Shown here one piece after another: positions 6,535-36,367 of a stretch of 64,000 bases of DNA. The DNA comes from Gemmatimonadales bacterium (lineage in GTDB: Bacteria > Gemmatimonadota > Gemmatimonadetes > Longimicrobiales > Gaopeijiaceae). Below the pieces are notes generated by a model that worked only from the letters and a program-made list of their open reading frames with translations, ran no database searches and was not told where the DNA came from. Position 1 is the first letter of the stretch, and each line of letters opens with the position of its first letter. The translations under genes were made by a program, and so were the position numbers. Location: positions 472,973-536,972 of the forward strand of contig CP070829.1 in assembly GCA_020344755.1 (NCBI GenBank), in the 5' to 3' direction.

Positions 6535-9500
6535 ATGACGCCCATGCTCCGCCACACCCGCGTTCTCCTCCCCAGCCTCGCCCTCGCCGCTCTTCCCGCC
6601 CCCGTCGTCGGGATCCAGGACACCCAGGAGTGGGACGTGTCCGCTCCACGGGGCGAGGCCCGCACTGTGTCGTTCACGACGACCGAGGGGACCTGGATGA
6701 GCGTGGACCTGAGCCCGGACGGCCGGACCCTCGTATTCGATCTCCTGGGAGACCTGTACGCCCTCCCCGTGGAGGGCGGCCAGGCCACGCGCATCACCTC
6801 CGGGCCCGCCTGGGACGTGCAGCCCCGCTTCTCGCCCGACGGCCGGCGGATCGCCTTCACCAGTGACCGGGCCGGAGGAGACAACCTCTGGGTGATGAAC
6901 GCAGACGGCTCGGACCCGACCCAGGTGTCGAAGGAGAGCTTCCGGCTGTTGAACGGGCCGGCCTGGACCCCCGATGGTCAGTACCTCCTGGGCCGGAAGC
7001 ACTTCACCAGCACCCGATCCCTGGGGGCCGGGGAGGTGTGGATGTACCACGTGGGCGGCGGCTCCGGGATGCGGATCACCGAGCGGCGTAACGACCAGCA
7101 GGACCAGGGGAACGAGATCGCCGTCAGCCCCGACGGCCGGTACCTGTACTTCTCCGAGGATGCCACGTCCGGCCCCACCTTCCAGTACAACAAGGACCCC
7201 AACCCGGGCATCTACCGCATCCGTCGGCTCGACCGCGAGACCGGGGACATCACCACCATCTCCGGCGGGCCCGGCGGTGCGGCCCGCCCGGTACCTTCGC
7301 CCGACGGCGAAAAGCTGGCCCTCGTGCGCCGGGTGCGGGGGGAGTCGGTCCTCTACGTCCGCGACCTGGCCACGGGTGCGGAACGGCCCGTCTGGGACGG
7401 GCTGGACCACGACCAGCAGGAGGCGTGGGCCATCTTCGGCGTGTATCCCAACTTCGCCTGGACCCCCGATTCCCGTGACGTAATCCTCTGGGCCGGCGGC
7501 AAGCTGGTGCGGGTGAACACCGAGACCCGGGGGGTGGCCGAGGTCCCCTTCCAGGCCGAGGTGGAGCAGACCGTGGCGGAGGTGGTGCGTTTCCCTGCGG
7601 AGCTCCATCCGGAGCGCTTCGAAGCCCGGATGATCACCGGCGCCCGCACCACACCGGACGGCCGCACCGTGGTCTTCCATGCCGTGGGTCAGCTGTGGAA
7701 GAAGCAGCTCCCGGATGGGACTCCCCAGCGGCTCACCTCGGACGAGCACTTCGAGTACGAGCCGTCCCTGAGCCCCGACGGCCGGACCGTGGTGTACACG
7801 ACCTGGGACGACGAGCGCCTCTCCGAGATCCGGTCCGTGCCCCTCGCCGGCGGGCGGTCCACGGTCCTCACCCGACGGCCCGGGTACTACTCCGAGCCCC
7901 AGTTCAGCCCGGACGGGCGACACATCGTCTTCCGGCGAGGGAGCGGCAACGCCCTTCTCGGTACCCTCCACTCCAGCGACACCGGGCTGTGGGTCATGGC
8001 AGCCGACGGGGGTGAGCCTCGGCGGATCCGGGAGAGTGGATCGAATCCGTTCTTCGGGCCGGCAGGGGCCCGGATCTACTTCAGCACCGGTGGCGGAGCC
8101 GAGAAGCAGCTCCGCAGCGTCACCCTGGACAACGCCGACGAGCGCGTCCACCTCACCATGAACTACCCCACGGACGTGGCCCTGAGTCCCGACGGCCGGT
8201 GGGTGGCGTGGAACGAGCTCTTCCAGGTGTACGTGGCCCCCATGCCCCGGACGGGAGGGCCCCTTGCCCTGTCCAAGGACATGACCGGCGTTCCGGTGAC
8301 CCGGGTCAGCCGGGACGACGGCATCGCCCTGCACTGGAGCGATGCCGGAACCCTCCACTGGACCTACGGCCCCGAGTACTTCACCCGTACCATGGCGAAC
8401 TCGTTCGCCTTCGTGGACGGCGCTCCCGAGGAGATTCCATCCGCCGACACGGTGGGCCTTCTCCTGGGTCTGGAGGTGAATGCCGACGCCCACGATGACG
8501 TCTTCGCCCTGACCGGCGCCCGCGTGGTGACCATGGTCGGGGACGAGGTCATCGAGGACGGGACGGTGGTGGTCCGCGGCACCCGGATCGCCGCCGTGGG
8601 CCCCTCGGACCAGGTCCAGATTCCCTCCGACGCCACCGTCGTCGATGCCCGCGGCCGGACCGTGATCCCGGGGATCGTGGACGCCCACGCCCACGCGAAC
8701 CACTTCTTCTCGGGGCCCACGCCGGAGCAGAACTGGACGTACTACGCGAACCTGGCCTTCGGTGTCACCACCGCCCACGACCCCTCCGCGAACACCGCGT
8801 TCGTCTTCCGGAACCGGGAGCTCCAGCTCGCGGGCCGGATCGTGGGCCCGCGCATCCTCTCCACCGGCACGATCCTCTACGGCGCGGAAGGGGACTTCAA
8901 GGCGGTGGTCAACAGCCTCGACGACGCCCGGCGCCACGTGCGGCGGATGAAGCAGGTGGGGGCGGTGAGCGTGAAGAGCTACAACCAGCCGCGGCGGGAG
9001 CAGCGGCAGCAGATCCTCCAGGCGGCCCGGGAGCTCGGGATGATGGTGGTCCCGGAAGGGGGCTCCACCTTCTTCCACAACGTCACCATGGTGGTGGACG
9101 GGCACACCAGCGTGGAGCACAACGTCCCCGTGGCGCCGCTCTACCGGGACGTCATGGAGCTGTGGCGCCACTCCGGGACGGCGTACACCCCCACCCTCGT
9201 GGTGAACTACGGCGGTCCAAGCGGCGAACGGTGGTGGTACGAGACCACCCGCGTCTGGGAGAACGAGCACCTGCTGCGCTTCTTCCCCCGAGGGAACCTG
9301 GACGCCCTCAGCCGCCGCGTGGTGAGCACGCCGGAGGAGGAATACCACCACATCGCCGTGGCGGAGCAGGCCAAGAAGCTCGTGGACCAGGGCAACCTGG
9401 TGCAGATCGGCGCCCACGGGCAGCTCCAGGGTCTGGCGGCGCACTGGGAGATCTGGATGCTGGAGCAGGGCGGCATGACGCCCCACGAGGCGCTGCGGTC

Positions 9501-28140: not shown

Positions 28141-28291
28141 GGGCGGGAGGGCGGGAGGGCCAAACTCCCGATCCCCGCAGTGGCGCATCAGCACCGACGA
28201 CGCGGCTCCTGCTTCCTCCTCGGCCCGCCGACTCTTGCGAGGGAAATGGGGGCCGATGGATCTTGCCCCCCTTCTCCTCCCCGACCGGCGC

Positions 28292-30874
28292 ATGCCCGAC
28301 CTCCCCCCCCAACTGACTGCGGCCCTCGAAGACCGCTACCGCGTCGAGCGAAGGCTCGGCGAGGGCGGGATGGCCACGGTCTATCTCGCCGAGGATCTCC
28401 GGCACCATCGGCCCGTGGCGCTCAAGGTCCTCAAGCCGGAGCTCGCCGCCATGGTGGGCGCCGACCGCTTCCTGACGGAGATCCGCACCACGGCGCGCCT
28501 GCAGCACCCCCACATCCTTCCCTTGCACGATTCGGGGGAGGCGGAGGGGCTCCTTTTCTACGTGATGCCGTACGTGGAGGGCGAATCCCTCCGTGACCGC
28601 CTGGACCGGGAGCGGCAGCTCCCGGTGGAGGACGCGGTCCGCATCGCGAGGCAGCTGTCCGAGGCGCTGGACTACGCGCACCGACAGGGCGTGGTCCACC
28701 GCGACATCAAGCCGGCGAACGTCCTCCTGGTGGACGGCAATCCGGTACTGGCGGACTTCGGTATCGCCCTCGCGGTAGGCGCCGCAGGCGCGGGTCGGCT
28801 GACGGAGACCGGGCTTTCCCTCGGGACGCCCCATTACATGAGTCCGGAACAGGCGACCGGAGAAGGTCACGTGGGGCCGGCCACGGATCTCTACGCCCTG
28901 GGCTGCGTGCTCTTCGAGATGCTGGCTGGAGCGCCGCCCTACGTGGCCGGGACCGCCCAGGGGGTCCTGGGGAAGATCCTGACCGAGCCGGTTCCCAGCG
29001 CCACGGCAGAGCGTCCGAGCGTTCCGGCCCACGTTGACGCGGTCATCCGAACCGCCCTGGAGAAGGTGCCCGCCGACCGGTTCCGCCGGGGTGCGGAGTT
29101 CGTCTCCGCCCTGGAGGATCCCGCCTACCGGGGTCGCGCGCAGGACCGTTCGGCCTCGGAGTCCCGTGACACGGCGGCAGGGTCGTGGGTTCGGACGGCC
29201 GCGGCGATGGCGGCCACCGCTGTGGTGGTGGCGCTGGCCATGTCCGTCATCGGGGACGATTCAGCGGGATCCGAGTTCCAGGTGGTTGCCGTCGACGTCT
29301 CCGACCTCGGAGGCGGGGCGCAGGTGCGCCTCTCCCCCGACGGACGGAATCTCCTGGCCCGGTCCGAGGGGCGGCTCTGGATTCGTGGCCTCTCCGACTT
29401 CACCTGGCGCGAGCTGCCCGGCACCGAGGGGGCGCTGACCCACGGTTGGGCGCCGGACGGCACGTGGATCACCTTCACGGTCGGGGACGAGGTCCGCAGG
29501 GTGGCACCGGACGGGGGGCCCGCCAGCACCCTCTTTCGACTCCCCGACGCCTGCTCCTGGCCCGACATCTGTGGCTCCACCTGGGGGTGGGATGGCCGGA
29601 TCTGGGCGGTAACCGGCTTCGATGACGTGCTGGTGGCGCCGCAAGACGGCGGCCCTCCCGAGCCCCTCTTCCAGCCCGCAGAGGGGGTGCACTATCACCT
29701 CCCCCTTCCACTCCCCGGAGGGGCGGCTCTCCTGGGTGCGGACGACGAGGTGGGCGGGCTTCGATGGGAGCTGTGGGACGGCGAGCAGGTCCTGCCCCTG
29801 GAGGGAATCGGGTTCCCGGCGGTGTACGGCGACGGCCGTGTGTATCACCAGCGCGGATCGGAGATCTGGGCCACCCCCTGGTCCGAGGACGAACGGACCT
29901 TCTCGGGACCGGCCGTATTCGTCGCTCCGGAGGCGCTGGTGCTCGGCGCGGGCGAGGACGGATCGATCCTCGCCCAACCGATCCGGCCCGGGCCCGAGCC
30001 TCGGCGGGAACTGGTCTGGGTGGATCGCCAGGGGCGGGAGACGGACTCGGCCATCCAGCCACCGTCGGGGTCCGGTCGGGTCGACGCGGTGGGGCTGTCG
30101 CGGGGGGGAGACGTGCTCTGGAGGGACGAGGACCGGCTCTGGTACGCGGGCGCCGACGGGGTCGGAGCGAGCCTCGTCCCCTCCGTGCAGGACAGCGAGG
30201 CAAGCTTCGGGGCGTGGAGCCCGGACGCTTCGGTGGTCTTCGTGGACCTGGACCAGCCCGGACGGGAGCGGCACGAGTCGCCCATCCTCCGGGTCGACCT
30301 CCGCTCGAGGAGCGTGGAGCCCGTGGTACCCCGGGGGAAGACGCCCTCGGTGTCGTTCGATGGAAGTGCGCTGGTGTTCGACGTGGGCGACGTGGGGGAG
30401 GGAGAGCTCCGGATCCTCGACCTGGCGACGGGTCAGGAGCGCCCCTTCACGGCGGGCTTCCCCATCGAACAATCTCCGGCACTCTCCCCAGGCGGGCCCT
30501 GGATCGCGTTCGTCACGCAAGACCGCCCCGGTGGGGACCAGGACCTCTGGGTGGCCCGCTTTCCCGACGGCGACGCCCCGGTCTTGATCGAGCGCGGCGT
30601 CACCGGCCGGCGACCGATATGGAGCCGCGACGGGAGCCGGCTCTACTTCGCGCAGGACGAGACACTCCACGAGGTCCGGCTGAGCCCTTCCGCGAACGGT
30701 CTACGGATCGACGGTCGGGACTACCTCTTCCGGCTGGACGGTCAGGGGTTAGCCGCGAGTTCACTGGTGGCCGATTCCGCCGGCGTCCGCTTTCTGCTCG
30801 GCGGGCTGCGGGAGGGCTCCGGGGCGGGCGACCGCACGCTCATGCTGCTCCAGAACTGGCGACCGGATCGCTAG
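28292..30874 (+). CDS. Hanks-type Ser/Thr protein kinase with TM and C-terminal PD40/TolB-like propeller
   Basis: LGEGGMATVY, VALKVL, HRDIKPANVLL, DFGIA, GTPHYMSPEQ; SPDG repeats. Confidence 0.93.
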   Translation: MPDLPPQLTAALEDRYRVERRLGEGGMATVYLAEDLRHHRPVALKVLKPELAAMVGADRFLTEIRTTARLQHPHILPLHDSGEAEGLLFYVMPYVEGESLRDRLDRERQLPVEDAVRIARQLSEALDYAHRQGVVHRDIKPANVLLVDGNPVLADFGIALAVGAAGAGRLTETGLSLGTPHYMSPEQATGEGHVGPATDLYALGCVLFEMLAGAPPYVAGTAQGVLGKILTEPVPSATAERPSVPAHVDAVIRTALEKVPADRFRRGAEFVSALEDPAYRGRAQDRSASESRDTAAGSWVRTAAAMAATAVVVALAMSVIGDDSAGSEFQVVAVDVSDLGGGAQVRLSPDGRNLLARSEGRLWIRGLSDFTWRELPGTEGALTHGWAPDGTWITFTVGDEVRRVAPDGGPASTLFRLPDACSWPDICGSTWGWDGRIWAVTGFDDVLVAPQDGGPPEPLFQPAEGVHYHLPLPLPGGAALLGADDEVGGLRWELWDGEQVLPLEGIGFPAVYGDGRVYHQRGSEIWATPWSEDERTFSGPAVFVAPEALVLGAGEDGSILAQPIRPGPEPRRELVWVDRQGRETDSAIQPPSGSGRVDAVGLSRGGDVLWRDEDRLWYAGADGVGASLVPSVQDSEASFGAWSPDASVVFVDLDQPGRERHESPILRVDLRSRSVEPVVPRGKTPSVSFDGSALVFDVGDVGEGELRILDLATGQERPFTAGFPIEQSPALSPGGPWIAFVTQDRPGGDQDLWVARFPDGDAPVLIERGVTGRRPIWSRDGSRLYFAQDETLHEVRLSPSANGLRIDGRDYLFRLDGQGLAASSLVADSAGVRFLLGGLREGSGAGDRTLMLLQNWRPDR

Positions 30875-31806
30875 CGGCCTCGACGGCTGCGACCCGGGGA
30901 GTCCACTCGAGCGGTGTCGGGCTGCGGCACTTCCGGAGGCGGCTCCCGACCCGGGACGAGTCGGTCCAGAATCATCTCCTGTCGCCAGCGCATCTGCCCC
31001 GGATTGTGGGCCGGGTTCGAGGTGAGGGGGTGGGGAAGCGTCCCGGCCAGGGCCGCAGCCTGCGCAATCGTCAGCTCCCGGGCCGACGTCCCGAAGTAGC
31101 GCTGAGCCGCCGCTTCGGCACCGAAGATCCCCGGCCCCCACTCCACCAGGTTCAGGTAGAGCTCCAGGATCCGGTCCTTTCCCAGGCGCCGTTCCAGGCG
31201 CCGGGCCACCACGAGCTCCAGCGCCTTCCTCAGGAAGCTCCGTTCGGTCCCGAAATACAGGTTCTTGGCCAGCTGCTGGGTCAGCGTGCTCCGGCCACGC
31301 AACTCGTCCTGGTGGCTCCGGACGTAGCGCAGTGCGCGGACCAGGGCCGCAAGGTCCGAGGGACTCCGCCACTTGAACTCGTCGTCACCCGTCCACTCCA
31401 CCTCTTCTGCCAGGGACACCCAGTCCACGCCCTCGTGCTCCCGGAAGCGGTAGTCCTCCGCCACGATCACCGCACGGACGAGGTTCGGTGAGATCTCCGG
31501 AAGGGGAAGCCACTCCTGCCGGATGAGCAGGGTGTCGCCCACCAGCCGGGCCTCACGGATCCGCTGCTCCATGAGGGCAGTCCGGTGGGGGTTCCGGCTC
31601 CCCAGCGTCCAGGGGTACGGGATGACGACAAAGACCAGGATCACGGACAGGACCATCGCCGCGGCGGCCGCCACCAGGAGCACCCGGAGCCACCGGAGAC
31701 GGCCCCGGGAGACCCCTTGGCCGCCATCTCCCACCCCCTCGCCATCCGGCGGGCGGAGGAACCAGCCCCGAGCGGCACGGAGGGACCACCCGCGTCTCCG
31801 GCTCAT
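30871..31806 (-). CDS. mtgA: Monofunctional peptidoglycan transglycosylase (GT51)
   Basis: AEDYRFREHEGVD, GRSTLTQQLAKNLY, RKALE, ILELYLN; ATG overlaps the upstream stop. Confidence 0.88.
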   Translation of the reverse strand: MSRRRGWSLRAARGWFLRPPDGEGVGDGGQGVSRGRLRWLRVLLVAAAAAMVLSVILVFVVIPYPWTLGSRNPHRTALMEQRIREARLVGDTLLIRQEWLPLPEISPNLVRAVIVAEDYRFREHEGVDWVSLAEEVEWTGDDEFKWRSPSDLAALVRALRYVRSHQDELRGRSTLTQQLAKNLYFGTERSFLRKALELVVARRLERRLGKDRILELYLNLVEWGPGIFGAEAAAQRYFGTSARELTIAQAAALAGTLPHPLTSNPAHNPGQMRWRQEMILDRLVPGREPPPEVPQPDTARVDSPGRSRRGR

Positions 31807-33038
31807 CGCAGGGGCCGGACCCAGATGTTGCGGAAGCTGATGGGCGGACTCGGATCGCCGTGGGCCTGGAGCATGATGGGTGCCTCGCCATGGGGCCGGT
31901 ACACGGGCACTCCCCGGTAGAGCGTCCGGCCTTTCAGCACCACATCGTTCTGCACCACCACGCCGTTGAAGAGGGCGGTGACGCGGGCGGGCGACTCCAG
32001 CACCCCCTCCTCGTTGAACCGGGGGGCGGTCCAAAGGACATCGTACGTCTGCCAGGAGCCCGGCGGACGCGCCGGGTTGGCCAGGGGGACATGCTGCTTG
32101 TAGACGCTTCCCGCCATGCCATTCACGTAGGTGGCGTTCCCGTACGAGTCCAGGATCTGGAGTTCGTAACCTCCGGGAGGATCCCCGGCGAAGGCCAGGT
32201 AGAGGCCGCTGTTGCCCCGGGCCTGCCCCTCCCCGGTGATCTCCTCCGGCACCCGCCACTCCAGGTGGAGCTGGTAGTCCCGGAACCGGCGCCGCGTCTG
32301 GATGTCACCCACCGACTTGTCCACTGTGACCACCCCGTCCGCCACCGTCCAACCCGCCGGTGTGTTGTCGCGGACGTTCACCCACTCCGAGAGGTCCGAC
32401 CCGTCGAAGAGGACGATGGCGTCGTCCGGTGGCGAGGTCGGGCCGGCGTAGCGCCCGGGACGGACCGTCCGGGGTACCGGCTCCCACACCTCCGTGTCCT
32501 CGGGACGGGGGGCGGGGCCCGAACCCACCGCTCCCCTGCCGGCCTCCGTCGACTCTCCTGCGGCGTCCCACGCCTCCTCCGGCGCTGGCCCCTTCTGGTA
32601 CTCCATGAGCATCCGCCAGGCGCCGTCGACCCGCACCAGGAGGGCCTCGAAGTGCACCGTGGCGACGCTCGCCTCACCGCCCCGGGGTCGAAGGGAGTAC
32701 CGAAAGATCCCCGTCTCGTGGGCGCTGGCCGCGTCGTGGAGTCGCCGGGTGAAGCGGAACTCCACCTCCGCGGCCGCCCTACCCTCCCGCACGTCCACGA
32801 ATCCGGGCTCCCACCCTTCCAGGGCCCGGGCGATGGGAACACTCGTCCCGGAGGCCAGCGAGACCAGGACCGCATCCGGATGGTAGAGGGAGGCGTACCC
32901 CCGGAAGTCCCCGTCCGCCACCGTGCGGGACACCTCGGCCCAGTACGCGTCCAGGCCATCGGGGAGCTGTCCCTGGGACGGTACGGGCACGAGAAGCGTG
33001 GCACCCACGAGAAGGGAGCCGAGATTGCGAGGGCTCAT
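31803..33038 (-). CDS. Secreted NTF2/SnoaL-like domain fused to DUF1080 (3-keto-disaccharide hydrolase-like)
   Basis: Signal peptide; YHPDAVLVS...HETGIFRY; then PEDTEVWEPVP, DAIVLFDG, LHLEWR, GNSGLY, YELQILDS, LQAHG. Confidence 0.8.
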   Translation of the reverse strand: MSPRNLGSLLVGATLLVPVPSQGQLPDGLDAYWAEVSRTVADGDFRGYASLYHPDAVLVSLASGTSVPIARALEGWEPGFVDVREGRAAAEVEFRFTRRLHDAASAHETGIFRYSLRPRGGEASVATVHFEALLVRVDGAWRMLMEYQKGPAPEEAWDAAGESTEAGRGAVGSGPAPRPEDTEVWEPVPRTVRPGRYAGPTSPPDDAIVLFDGSDLSEWVNVRDNTPAGWTVADGVVTVDKSVGDIQTRRRFRDYQLHLEWRVPEEITGEGQARGNSGLYLAFAGDPPGGYELQILDSYGNATYVNGMAGSVYKQHVPLANPARPPGSWQTYDVLWTAPRFNEEGVLESPARVTALFNGVVVQNDVVLKGRTLYRGVPVYRPHGEAPIMLQAHGDPSPPISFRNIWVRPLR

Positions 33039-33155
33039 GGCCGATCTCCAGGCGGAGGAGTGACGGGAGGAAGGCACTGTCCTCCGCCCAAGATGTGGCC
33101 CCCCCAGGCGGGGCGCGACCGGAAGGGCAAGTGTGGGGCTCCGGCTCGTTCGTCC

Positions 33156-34739
33156 CTACACGATCCTCCTGGCCACCGGATCCCAACGCACCTTTCGGTT
33201 CTCCCGGTAGGCCCGGGTCGCCATGTGGCAGGTGATGGCCTCCTCGAAGCCCCGCTCGATGCCGCAGCTCGTCTCGGCGTTCCCCCGGATCGCGTCGATC
33301 CACTCCTTGATGTGGAGGTGGTACGAGTTGACCATCTTGCCGTCCCGGTAGGTGTAGAGCAGCCCCCGCTGGGCGAAGTACGCCGCGGTAGCCGACGTCA
33401 CCGCGTCCACCCCCGACGTCCGGGGGTTGTACGAGAACATGGGCCGGGTGGGATCGATGACGTCGCCGGCGATCTTCTCGGCATACCGGGTGGAGTACTG
33501 GTCCGCGGTGACGTGCACCGTCTGGCCCACCTGCATGGTGGCGTCGTGCCCCATGAAGACCTGGCCCCGGTAGAGGCTGTTGGCCAACGTGGCGCTGTAC
33601 ATCAGCGTCAGGTCCCGCTCCGGGTACTCGCACACGGCCTGCCAGACGTCCGGCACTTCCCGGCCATCCTTGAAGTAGTAGATCCCCCCCGACGACACGA
33701 CGGTGTCGGGAATGCCGATCCCCAGGATCTGGTTCACCGCGTCGTATTCGTGGGACATGAGGTCCCCGGAAAGCCCCGTGCCGTAGTCCCACCAGCACCG
33801 CCACCGGAAGAAGCGCTCCGGGCTGAAGGGGACCTTGTTCTCCGAGGGTTCCTGGAACTGCTCCCAGTCGATGGTCGCGGGGGTGCCCCGATCGTCGATG
33901 CCGTAGACCCAGGCGCCCCAGGGCGCGTTCCGGTTGGTGGTGACCTCCACCAGGGAGACGTGGCCCAACACACCGGCGTCCACCACCTCCCGGGCCTTGA
34001 TGTGGGTCTCGGACTGGCGCTGCTGGTGCCCCACCTGGAAGGTGATATCGGAGGCGGTGACCGCATCGTACATCTGATGGGCCTCCTCCTCCGTCCGGGT
34101 CATGGCCTTCTCGACGTAGAGGTGCTTTCCCGCCGCCACCGCGTCCAGGGCGATGCGGGTGTGCCAGTGATCCGGGGTGGCGATGACCACCGCGTCCACG
34201 TCGCTCTCCAGGAGCTCGGTGTAGCGGCGGTACCGGGTCGCCTGCCCGGCGGTGGCGCCTCCCGGACCGTCGGCGTTCGCGGCCGCCGCCCGGGCGCGCT
34301 CGGCCCGCACGTCGAAGAGATCGCACACCGCGGTGATGGAGACATTCAGGTCCTCCTGCCCCATGAACACCTCGAGGGTCCGGTTGGCGGGGTTCTCCAG
34401 GTTGTTCCTCGCCTCCGCCTCGATCCAGTCTGGGTGGGCGAAGCCCAGGCACCGTCCCAGCGACTCCCCTTCCCCGCCGAAGCCGACGATGCCCACCCGC
34501 ACGCGGTCACCCGGCGGCCGGGAGATGGCGTCCGGGATCACCGCGGGGGCGCGGCCCTCGAGCCCCAGCTCCGCCATGATGGCTTCCCGCTTCGCATCGT
34601 CCGCCAGCTTCTTCTCGTACCACCCGGCGAAGAACACCCCCAGCACCGGCACCGAGGCCAGCGCCTTCAGCACGTCGCGGCGGCCGATGCCCGCGGACTC
34701 GACCTGTCCTTCCGTGTCCTTCACGGATTCGTCGCTCAT
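33156..34739 (-). CDS. Gfo/Idh/MocA oxidoreductase with a twin-arginine-like N-terminus
   Basis: RRDVLK, VRVGIVGFGG, VIATPDHWH, YVEKAMT, FQVGHQQR, GDLMSHEYD. Confidence 0.9.
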   Translation of the reverse strand: MSDESVKDTEGQVESAGIGRRDVLKALASVPVLGVFFAGWYEKKLADDAKREAIMAELGLEGRAPAVIPDAISRPPGDRVRVGIVGFGGEGESLGRCLGFAHPDWIEAEARNNLENPANRTLEVFMGQEDLNVSITAVCDLFDVRAERARAAAANADGPGGATAGQATRYRRYTELLESDVDAVVIATPDHWHTRIALDAVAAGKHLYVEKAMTRTEEEAHQMYDAVTASDITFQVGHQQRQSETHIKAREVVDAGVLGHVSLVEVTTNRNAPWGAWVYGIDDRGTPATIDWEQFQEPSENKVPFSPERFFRWRCWWDYGTGLSGDLMSHEYDAVNQILGIGIPDTVVSSGGIYYFKDGREVPDVWQAVCEYPERDLTLMYSATLANSLYRGQVFMGHDATMQVGQTVHVTADQYSTRYAEKIAGDVIDPTRPMFSYNPRTSGVDAVTSATAAYFAQRGLLYTYRDGKMVNSYHLHIKEWIDAIRGNAETSCGIERGFEEAITCHMATRAYRENRKVRWDPVARRIV

Positions 34740-35245
34740 GCTGCCTCCACGGCTGTGCCGGACTTCACGAAGAGTCGATCGAGGCCGACACGGTGGCCGG
34801 TGGGAAGCGCCAGCAGCACCACCAGCGCGGCCAGCTCCACCAGGACCTTGTTGACGATGATGTAGCTGCCCTCGGTGGGCAGAGAGTACTCCAGCCCCGG
34901 GAAGGGCGGGGCCGCCAGGTAATACAGGGCCAGGAGCACGATCCCGGCGACGGTGGCCGTCCGGGTGAGGATCCCCACCAACAGGGCGAGTCCGATGAGG
35001 GTGAGGCCCCACTCGTTCAGGACATCCACGACGCTCACCGCCCCGGGGTTGAGGGCCAGGTCACGGAAGGTCTCCGAAAACCAGCCCTGGGAATCCTGCA
35101 GATAGCTCACCGAGGTCCACTGGGGATTCGTGATCTTGGTCACTCCCTCGTACAGGAAGTGCCAACCCACCAGCATCCGCAGGACCACCAGAGCGGTGAG
35201 CTGGAAGCCGCCGTATTGGGCGGCGTCAACGTGCGCTCGACGCAT
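34736..35245 (-). CDS. DoxX/DoxD family membrane protein
   Basis: LRMLVGWHFLYEGVTKI, GLALLVGILTR, IVNKVLVE; GGGAG RBS. Confidence 0.85.
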   Translation of the reverse strand: MRRAHVDAAQYGGFQLTALVVLRMLVGWHFLYEGVTKITNPQWTSVSYLQDSQGWFSETFRDLALNPGAVSVVDVLNEWGLTLIGLALLVGILTRTATVAGIVLLALYYLAAPPFPGLEYSLPTEGSYIIVNKVLVELAALVVLLALPTGHRVGLDRLFVKSGTAVEAA

Positions 35246-35257
35246 GGTTCTCCCTTC

Positions 35258-36367
35258 TCATAGGTGTGACTCCGAGACGGAGCGCCAGCGCTTTGAGCGC
35301 CGTCGGCGACCGTCCGCGCCCAGGAGCAAACAGGCGCAACCGGGGAGGGTCTCGATCAGTGCCACCGCCCGCGCCGGGTCCAGGACCAGGGCGGTGGTGG
35401 CCAGGGCGTCGGCCATCATGGCCGTGGGGGCCGCGACCGACGCGCTCAGGGTGTGGAGGGGGGATTGCCCGGTGGCGGTGTCCACCACGTGGTGCACGCT
35501 CCGGTCCTCCGTGAAGAAGTTCTCGTAGCCGCCGGAGGTGGCGATGGCCCCGTCCCGGAGCTCGGTGACCGCCGGGAATCCGTCCCGCTTCAGCGGATCC
35601 TGGACACCGATCCTCCACGGACGGCCCTCCGCGTTCGTCCCCGACGCCCGGATGTCGCCCCCGGCGTCGATGAGCCAACGGTCGAGGCCCCGCCGGAGGA
35701 GGACGTCGGCCATTCGGTCCACCACGTGCCCCTTGGCGATGCCGTCCAGGGTCAGTCCCATGCCCCCCTTCTCGAAGCGGATGGACCGTTCCTTCACTTT
35801 GAGCGCGGACATCCCCACCAGCGCTCTCGCCTCGCGGAGGTCCGCCTCGGGGACCGGTCCCCTGAGTTTCCAGCCCCGGAGCAGGTCCACCACCGGCTTC
35901 ACCGTGGCATCGAAGGCCCCGTGGCTGAGGCGGTGCATCTCCACCGCTCCCCGCACGACCCCGGAAAGCTCCGGGGGCGGATCGTCCAGCCCACCCCGCT
36001 GGTTCAGGATCGACACCGCAGACGTACCGTCGTGGCGATTGAGGAGGGACACCACCCGGTCCAGCTCGGTGAAGGCGTCACCCACCGCGGCGTCGGCCAG
36101 GTCCCGGGATGGGTGCACCAACGTCACCGACACCCGGGTCCGCATGGAGGGCGCGGACCAAGTCGCGCGACGCAGGCCCCGGCGCACCCGGACGTTCTCC
36201 TCCATCCGGGGCTCCGGATCGACGGTCCGGAAGCCCATTCCCGCCAGAACCGCACTCAGGTCGTTGCCGGGGCGGGACGGGGTCGAGGGGGACATGTGCG
36301 ACGCCGTCACAGAGGCGAAGCCTCGGGGAGCCCGGGATTCCGCATTGCGCTCCTGGCTGGTGGGCAT
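35258..36367 (-). CDS. apbE: FAD:protein FMN transferase
   Basis: LDGIAKG, DAGGDIR, PWRIGVQDP, AIATSGGYE, HHVVD, ADALATT; start uncertain. Confidence 0.85.
   Translation of the reverse strand: MPTSQERNAESRAPRGFASVTASHMSPSTPSRPGNDLSAVLAGMGFRTVDPEPRMEENVRVRRGLRRATWSAPSMRTRVSVTLVHPSRDLADAAVGDAFTELDRVVSLLNRHDGTSAVSILNQRGGLDDPPPELSGVVRGAVEMHRLSHGAFDATVKPVVDLLRGWKLRGPVPEADLREARALVGMSALKVKERSIRFEKGGMGLTLDGIAKGHVVDRMADVLLRRGLDRWLIDAGGDIRASGTNAEGRPWRIGVQDPLKRDGFPAVTELRDGAIATSGGYENFFTEDRSVHHVVDTATGQSPLHTLSASVAAPTAMMADALATTALVLDPARAVALIETLPGCACLLLGADGRRRRSKRWRSVSESHL

Follow-up and report, generated by a model that had tools for sequence, protein, structure and literature searches.

A three-gene module, comprising apbE, doxX and a gene for a Gfo/Idh/MocA oxidoreductase (hereafter OX), is encoded head to tail on the minus strand of a 64,000-nucleotide stretch of contig CP070829.1 from a Gemmatimonadales bacterium (the window, in whose coordinates positions are given unless a locus is named). 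Judged by sequence comparison, it is reasonably probable that the ApbE places FMN on Thr451 of OX before OX is exported by the twin-arginine translocation (Tat) system, and that the flavin relays electrons from bound NAD(P)H to quinone via DoxX. Comparative support is strong for the assignment of OX as an ApbE client, at the Thr that ends a VDAVTSAT sequence, as predicted in an initial annotation of this DNA; it comes from synteny, co-occurrence, homologues with an SGAT variant of the site and an intact ApbE active site. The suggestion in the same annotation that flavinylation occurs in the cytoplasm before Tat export appears probable, given the leaderless ApbE in ~50 orthologous operons. We infer that FMN is bound covalently, that it takes hydride from NAD(P)H and that DoxX passes electrons on to quinone, as we do the timing of flavinylation.

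The candidate flavinylation site and fold of OX

ApbE enzymes attach FMN to the Ser or Thr of D-x-x-[S/T]-G-A-[S/T] motifs. The coordinates confirm that VDAVTSAT (33387-33410) comprises residues 444-451 of OX (527 residues; 33156-34739, minus strand; PF01408, PF02894 and PF22725). Within it, the predicted flavinylation site, D445-A-V-T-S-A-T451, is encoded by 33387-33407 on the minus strand, and the predicted FMN acceptor, Thr451, by 33387-33389. The site agrees with the ApbE motif at Asp -6, Ser/Thr -3, Ala -1 and the acceptor Ser/Thr itself.

The site is widely conserved. The closest 120 database homologues (62-100% identity) all carry DA[VILM][TS]SA[TS], and [ILV]-D-[AGTV]-[VIL]-[TS]-[ST]-A-[TS]-x-x-Y-F is present, in register, in 78 of 79 related loci, down to 48% identity, these being from Gemmatimonadota, Acidobacteriota, Aminicenantes, Marinimicrobia, Calditrichota, Cytophagia, Bacteroidales and a Nitrospinales-labelled bin. 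The motif is thus kept in DoxX-linked Gfo/Idh/MocA homologues, a point that the initial annotation had proposed as a check. In an alignment of 41 sequences, D445 and A450 never vary, conservation is 90% or more at T448, S449 and T451, and the acceptor position varies only by exchange of Thr and Ser. A search of 1.8 billion cluster representatives located the site at the equivalent place in every full-length family member, down to 38% identity; in the distant Bacteroidota-type members P0137 and P0138 a canonical D-A-V-S-G-A-T is present at the position of the Thr451 site. By chance, D-x-x-[ST]-[GSA]-A-[ST] is expected in ~1% of proteins of the size and composition of OX, and ~15 times per genome; among ~100 other Tat-type Gfo/Idh/MocA cluster representatives it occurs once, at an unrelated N-terminal position. 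By these comparisons, the motif in OX is more than a chance occurrence.

In an AlphaFold2 (AF2) model of OX (mean pLDDT 80) the site forms a low-confidence loop (residues 442-450) leading into a helix (450-457). The only domains detected in OX are those of Gfo/Idh/MocA proteins, and the site lies outside the FMN_bind, NqrB/RnfD, DUF2271 and DUF3570 contexts. The possibility that the last 127 residues conceal an FMN_bind domain was ruled out, since they gave no Pfam match even at E = 10. DoxX and the other proteins of the cluster were likewise ruled out as the ApbE client, as none has a candidate site.

OX itself is recognized by the Pfam GFO_IDH_MocA profile at 2.5e-12 and has conserved features of a dinucleotide-binding dehydrogenase, including a Rossmann GxGxxG (residues 83-88; G83, G86 and G88), an acidic residue after strand 2 (D140), E210-K211 and D326..H330. 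In Foldseek comparisons the model matched inositol, levoglucosan and glucuronide dehydrogenases with E ~1e-17 and TM ~0.72. The nearest solved sequences, 8TDF/8TDH, match OX over residues 169-353 only, and the model for the BT_2158 glycoside 3-dehydrogenase (NF058561) gives 111 bits against a cut-off of 750, over residues 166-354 only; the low score and partial match indicate that OX belongs to a distinct subfamily. The nearest OX paralogue in the genome (C1:3967635-3969700) is a Tat-signal Gfo/Idh/MocA protein of ~40% identity, the C-terminal part of which is N-masked.

The N terminus of OX carries a twin-arginine motif, GRRDVLK (residues 19-25; 34665-34685, minus strand), which resembles the Tat consensus RRxFLK and precedes a hydrophobic segment of 15 residues, ALASVPVLGVFFAGW (residues 26-40; 34620-34664, minus strand), after which comes Lys-Lys. 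The presence of the twin-Arg/transmembrane N terminus reported initially is therefore upheld, R20 and R21 being invariant across the 41 aligned homologues, in which the hydrophobic segment is also conserved. No small-x-small cleavage site is evident in the sequence after the hydrophobic region, and residues 20-58 form a single continuous helix in the AF2 model. Sequence and model together suggest that the N terminus is probably an uncleaved Tat signal anchor, and export of OX is predicted. The occurrence of lipoprotein ApbEs, a Tat-signal TIM barrel and secreted DUF1080 partners in the clusters of other phyla indirectly supports a location of the OX domain outside the cytoplasm.

The ApbE, DoxX and their genomic context

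The apbE gene (35258-36295, minus strand) encodes an FAD:protein FMN transferase without a leader. The Pfam profile PF02424 is matched over its full length (1-265 of 266, E = 1.7e-64), as is the Vibrio cholerae ApbE (6NXI; full-length alignment, 4.8e-31). The start was first drawn at 36367, and the ATG at 36295 is favoured by homology with orthologues. The catalytic His is intact, with HHVVD opposite SHIID of 6NXI (His257 in V. cholerae, replaced by Gly in the variant 6NXJ), as is the A-D-x-x-A-T metal site, with ADALAT opposite ADGLAT. From these alignments the window ApbE keeps an intact FMN transferase active site, and activity is predicted.

Neither a hydrophobic N terminus nor a lipobox was found in the ApbE frame or in any in-frame extension of it up to 36520, in agreement with the initial description of this ApbE as lacking a hydrophobic signal peptide or lipobox. 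The ~50 orthologous ApbEs encoded directly upstream of doxX likewise have no signal peptide and share an N-terminal extension of ~47 residues with the consensus ..ARKLAAL.DLGFERVE.. and with a maximum hydropathy of <1.3 (e.g. L019:4350-5399). Its conserved core in the window is DLSAVLAGMGFRTV (36221-36262, minus strand). The extension matches no Pfam family, even at E = 10; standing where a signal peptide would otherwise be, it might serve to dock the Tat precursor. The genome has four to five ApbE genes, two of the others being near genes for FMN_bind-domain proteins, one of which has a canonical DMITGAT site; the multiplicity of ApbEs and their FMN_bind neighbours fit with one dedicated transferase per client. 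For one of the genome's other ApbEs (C1:2867984-2868799), no strict flavinylation motif is encoded within 5 kb, which makes it another orphan.

The linkage of the three genes described in the initial annotation is confirmed on the minus strand: 12 nucleotides separate the apbE stop from the doxX start, and the doxX stop and OX start overlap as ATGA (34736-34739). Where there is enough upstream DNA, doxX lies directly upstream of OX in 71 of 73 loci. In turn, doxX has an ApbE gene as its immediate upstream neighbour in 41 of 42 Gemmatimonadota loci and in a single locus from Acidobacteriota. A Tat-signal TIM-barrel gene is immediately upstream of apbE in 24 Gemmatimonadota loci, and a major facilitator superfamily (MFS) transporter gene follows OX in ~22. 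In Marinimicrobia and Aminicenantes a classical lipoprotein ApbE is encoded a few genes away, inside the OX cluster, the order being DoxX, OX, a NupG-like MFS transporter, a cytosolic Gfo/Idh/MocA protein, DUF1080, ApbE (on the opposite strand) and a Tat-signal, xylose-isomerase-like TIM barrel; in these clusters OX is the sole ORF of at least 100 residues with a candidate flavinylation site. OX is present in nine of the 121 genomes of the phylum that were sampled, and an ApbE orthologue (defined as at least 265 bits, the N-terminal extension included) is present in exactly the same nine, where it adjoins the OX module wherever contigs allow; the next-best ApbE matches, at 173-216 bits, are in genomes without OX.

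Some individual loci merit description. In the Aminicenantes locus L035 (3239-4931) the gene for a lipoprotein ApbE overlaps that for a Tat-signal NusG_II (PF07009) protein, and genes for secreted NusG_II proteins adjoin ApbE in Firmicutes as listed in supplementary data of Meheust et al. 2021 (PMC8238504); the NusG_II protein looks like a recurrent ApbE accessory. The Marinimicrobia contig L063 has two OX copies (746-2353 and 7882-8352), which flank TIM-barrel, ApbE, DUF1080, Gfo and MFS genes; no doxX immediately precedes the first copy. At L083, a locus of the Bacteroidota type with DAVSGAT, an uncalled ORF encoding a DoxX-like protein (7589-8014; 34% identity) lies directly downstream of OX and is followed by an AP_endonuc_2 gene.

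The doxX gene (34736-35245, minus strand) encodes a small membrane protein assigned to PF07681 (1.5e-8; 35.6 bits against a cut-off of 23.6), the AF2 model of which (pLDDT 84) has four long helices (residues 13-39, 57-90, 94-111 and 133-146). Conserved residues include W28, Y32, E33, K37, W43, D74, N77, Y108, Y109, E125, Y128 and K133. No His or Cys is conserved in the DoxX family alignment, making haem binding unlikely. Precedents for a redox role exist, in that DoxD is described as a subunit of thiosulfate:quinone oxidoreductase, the DoxX/D-family protein BtdS as the small subunit of a membrane hydroxyhydroquinone dehydrogenase, and the Listeria-type NADH dehydrogenase of extracellular electron transfer as Pyr_redox_2 plus DoxX (Meheust et al. 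supplement; PMC8238504). By analogy, DoxX is presumed to be the membrane/quinone partner of OX. The proposal in the initial annotation that electrons pass via DoxX to quinones thus gains from the near-universal adjacency of doxX and OX and from analogies that are weak, with the quinone step itself staying conjectural.

The initial annotation also envisaged that OX feeds 3-keto-glycosides to a downstream DUF1080 enzyme. The gene concerned, encoding a secreted fusion of a DUF4440 (SnoaL-like) domain with DUF1080 (3keto-disac_hyd) (31803-33077, minus strand; PF06439, 3e-41; PF14534, 1.2e-6), starts 78 nucleotides downstream of OX and may be part of the operon. DUF1080 is not encoded downstream of OX in the closest relatives, and three companions that the module has elsewhere, a Tat-signal TIM barrel, a NupG-like transporter and a second Gfo gene, are missing from the window genome, such that the window module is a minimal version. 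On these counts the proposed hand-off loses ground; in its favour, genes for DUF1080 and xylose-isomerase-like TIM-barrel proteins recur in the OX cluster in other phyla. In a 492-residue protein (L035:10232-11707) a xylose-isomerase-like TIM barrel (AP_endonuc_2) is fused with DUF1080, which connects the cluster's two accessory activities. A link between the module and keto-sugar processing is plausible, and from the fold and neighbours of OX we infer that its substrate is a sugar, glycoside or cyclitol.

With respect to regulation, an Rfam search of the whole 64-kb window detected neither an FMN riboswitch nor any other RNA family, a scan gave no promoter-like sites, and terminator-like sites were at chance level. 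Elsewhere in the window, the ORF list includes a long Ser/Thr protein kinase (28235-30874, plus strand) that has a transmembrane segment and, in its C-terminal part, an extensive run of repeats resembling a β-propeller of TolB or WD40 type.

Proposed mechanism and alternative explanations

In the mechanism that we favour, OX would be an NAD(P)-dependent sugar/polyol dehydrogenase that is exported folded by Tat and tethered by its uncleaved anchor. The leaderless ApbE would move the FMN part of FAD onto Thr451 in the cytoplasm, this residue being predicted to end the site within a loop that is flexible, peculiar to the family and leads into a helix. Because the ApbE of the Gemmatimonadota is leaderless, the simplest reading for this group is cytoplasmic flavinylation, then Tat export of the folded holo-enzyme. 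The substrate would reduce OX-bound NAD(P)+, and the loop FMN would then accept hydride, acting like a tethered second substrate in the ping-pong reaction of glucose-fructose oxidoreductase; since the periplasm has no free NAD pool, it would be the tethered FMN that re-oxidizes bound NAD(P)H. Electrons would exit through DoxX to quinone, making the module a sugar:quinone oxidoreductase.

Relatives at the edge of the family help to define what the ApbE link follows. In a distant group of six representatives (P0142, P0144, P0145, P0150, P0156 and P0180; 31-40% identity) the loop-helix segment is kept, and the residue aligned with Thr451 is Ser/Thr in all six, mostly after Pro or Ala (mostly as x-P-[ST]-x-x-W). 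ApbE is encoded immediately next to the OX relative in five of the six, with no other neighbour in common; one of these ApbEs has a Tat signal of its own, and the ApbE-linked loci (L101:6001-8461, L103:2606-5134, L104:6001-8673, L084:314-2685 and L102:960-2852) are all without DoxX. Neither ApbE nor DoxX is encoded near the relatives that lack the loop segment, namely P0147 (at two places, in 6-kb flanks) and P0154. The linkage to ApbE thus tracks the loop with its Ser/Thr, and not the whole family. By its alignment, the x-P-[ST]-x-x-W position of the distant group may be a non-canonical ApbE recognition site.

A sub-lineage represented by L061, P0123, P0124 and P0127 has Pro in place of Ala450, giving DAVTTPT (L061 and P0127) or DAISSPT (P0124). 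From overlapping contigs of one genome (L061:1-1428 and L087:1441-3425), a leaderless ApbE, DoxX and OX can be reconstructed, indicating that the Pro variant retains the full module.

Several observations weigh against flavinylation of OX as set out above. The site departs from the ApbE motif at -2, with Ser449 for Gly. The doubt that the initial annotation attached to this substitution stands in so far as Gly is absent from most of the family, and is eased by the canonical DAVSGAT of P0137 and P0138; in published mutagenesis of the ApbE motif, Gly-to-Ala and Ala-to-Val changes left ~50% flavinylation, and the effect of Asp to Ala was minor. The whole of OX is highly conserved, so conservation of the motif alone is weak evidence, and residues ~401-467, which bear the site, match no Pfam family even at E = 10. 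The six distant proteins have no [ST][GSA]A[ST] anywhere in their sequences, which, taken with the Pro variant, implies either looser site recognition by ApbE or some other service provided by it. As OX and ApbE are physically linked, their co-occurrence reflects a module inherited as a unit, rather than independent events. Some family members have no ApbE or DoxX within 6 kb; ApbE is encoded elsewhere in nine of 10 genomes that have OX and no nearby apbE (the exception being a 1.6-Mb incomplete bin), which fits the hypothesis, although as a weak test because ApbE is common. With regard to the role of DoxX, the best fold matches of its model, to the vitamin K-binding membrane domain of gamma-carboxylase, would fit a link to quinone but are not significant (E 1-3, TMq 0.42-0.53).

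Among the alternatives, it is unlikely, although it merits consideration, that Thr451 is flavinylated with DoxX serving as an anchor, assembly factor or regulator, the FMN passing its electrons to a periplasmic cytochrome, oxygen or a second substrate. The FMN and DoxX do appear separable, as two distant relatives have no upstream doxX and the distant ApbE-linked loci have none at all; DoxX has no conserved His/Cys or known cofactor, and the DoxX-family protein BtdS is described as doubling as a regulator tether. Set against this, in the core family doxX adjoins OX in 71 of 73 loci, often with translational coupling as in the window, the conserved transmembrane anchor of OX would put it beside DoxX, and no cytochrome gene is conserved in the cluster. 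Less likely still is that the ApbE does not transfer FMN to OX, being a flavin-trafficking FAD pyrophosphatase like that of Treponema or serving an unseen client, with Thr451 acting as a helix cap. Ser/Thr caps are common at helix starts, where the residue aligned with Thr451 lies, ApbE is kept by the Pro -1 variants and the motif-less relatives, and no flavin-binding domain is detectable in OX. However, a supply of free FMN by a cytoplasmic ApbE would be pointless where FMN is already plentiful, the catalytic His of the transferase is kept, and no other protein with a candidate site is encoded in any version of the cluster; moreover, at several distant loci the dehydrogenase and ApbE are the only conserved pair, and canonical SGAT is present at the exact Thr451 position in distant members. 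It is very improbable that OX is no more than an NAD-dependent dehydrogenase, with a motif due to chance and a meaningless neighbourhood, even allowing for the chance frequency of the pattern given above, since at least six phyla keep the site in register, the distribution of OX matches that of a dedicated ApbE subtype exactly, and the ApbE adjacency returns in rearranged clusters and distant relatives.

Extension of the favoured mechanism to the wider family is more tentative, and we put it forward as a possibility rather than as an expectation. It would hold that a broad clade of Tat-exported Gfo/Idh/MocA proteins, from at least six phyla and including the motif-less members, are two-cofactor ApbE clients in which a loop FMN re-oxidizes trapped nicotinamide, with DoxX connecting to quinone in the core family; that their ApbEs read a loop-helix structure, not the textbook sequence; and that a leaderless ApbE loads the flavin before Tat export in Gemmatimonadota and Acidobacteriota.

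Relationship to known systems and implications

Comparison with the classical ApbE clients (NqrC/RnfG, with their FMN_bind domains, NqrB/RnfD, NosR, PceC and PplA) reveals both likenesses and differences. As with these, the apbE gene lies beside that of the client, and OX is predicted to be outside the cytoplasm, a location from which unattached flavin would escape. In both OX and NqrC a D-x-x-[ST]-x-A-[ST] site, in a loop that leads into a helix, closes with the acceptor Thr, which is predicted for OX and in NqrC is Thr229, carrying FMN where helix G begins. By contrast with the classical clients, OX is a Rossmann-fold NAD(P) dehydrogenase without FMN_bind and with Ser for Gly, its FMN would act beside a bound nicotinamide cofactor, and its ApbE has no export signal. 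The DUF2271 and DUF3570 proteins provide a precedent for identification of clients in this way, as their flavinylation was predicted from orphan apbE genes and then confirmed by co-expression (Meheust et al. 2021, PMC8238504); there, as here, an otherwise clientless apbE is next to a conserved [ST]GA[ST]-like site, although the fold and partners of OX differ from those of the DUF2271/DUF3570 clients.

A cytoplasmic, leaderless ApbE is known from Klebsiella pneumoniae, where it serves a soluble fumarate reductase (PMC12052999). The client of the Klebsiella enzyme stays in the cytoplasm, whereas OX carries an invariant twin-arginine signal. No description of flavinylation preceding Tat export was found in the literature, the known cytoplasmic ApbEs serving cytoplasmic clients only.

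With respect to the dehydrogenase, OX resembles the Zymomonas glucose-fructose oxidoreductase and BT_2158-type enzymes (1H6A, 8TDF/8TDH and 8TDI) in its fold, its EK and its D-x-x-x-H; these enzymes are Tat-exported Gfo/Idh/MocA proteins that carry a nicotinamide cofactor into the periplasm and are associated with TIM-barrel/DUF1080 proteins. OX differs from them in having an extra transmembrane anchor, a Rossmann insertion, the site-bearing loop and DoxX and ApbE as partners. The pairing of a four-helix DoxX/DoxD protein with a larger catalytic subunit is described for the thiosulfate:quinone oxidoreductase DoxDA and the hydroxyhydroquinone dehydrogenase BtdLS; in these the catalytic partners are different, and no flavinylation is reported for them.

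Full-text literature searches found no paper joining ApbE with DoxX, or DoxX with Gfo/Idh/MocA. The ApbE/flavinylation literature that was searched has no mention of Gfo/Idh/MocA proteins, and the text of two flavinylation surveys none of either these or DoxX; the text of Meheust et al. 2021 (PMC8238504) mentions neither, and in the part of its supplement covered, DoxX entries are limited to the domain in the Listeria-type NADH dehydrogenase, to DoxX_2 and to similar cases. The class of ApbE client and its partner are thus probably new, as is the order of maturation.

The manner in which periplasmic Gfo/Idh/MocA dehydrogenases turn over is unsettled, in that a bound nicotinamide is exported to a compartment free of an NAD pool. 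If the favoured mechanism is correct, drainage of the cofactor by FMN into the quinone pool would explain turnover in a widespread family, and extracytoplasmic sugar/glycoside oxidation would be wired directly to respiration. A Rossmann-fold NAD enzyme would join the short list of ApbE client classes, the accepted ApbE recognition motif would be loosened, and flavinylation by ApbE ahead of Tat export would have its first example. The common, poorly understood DoxX proteins would, in addition, gain a concrete role.

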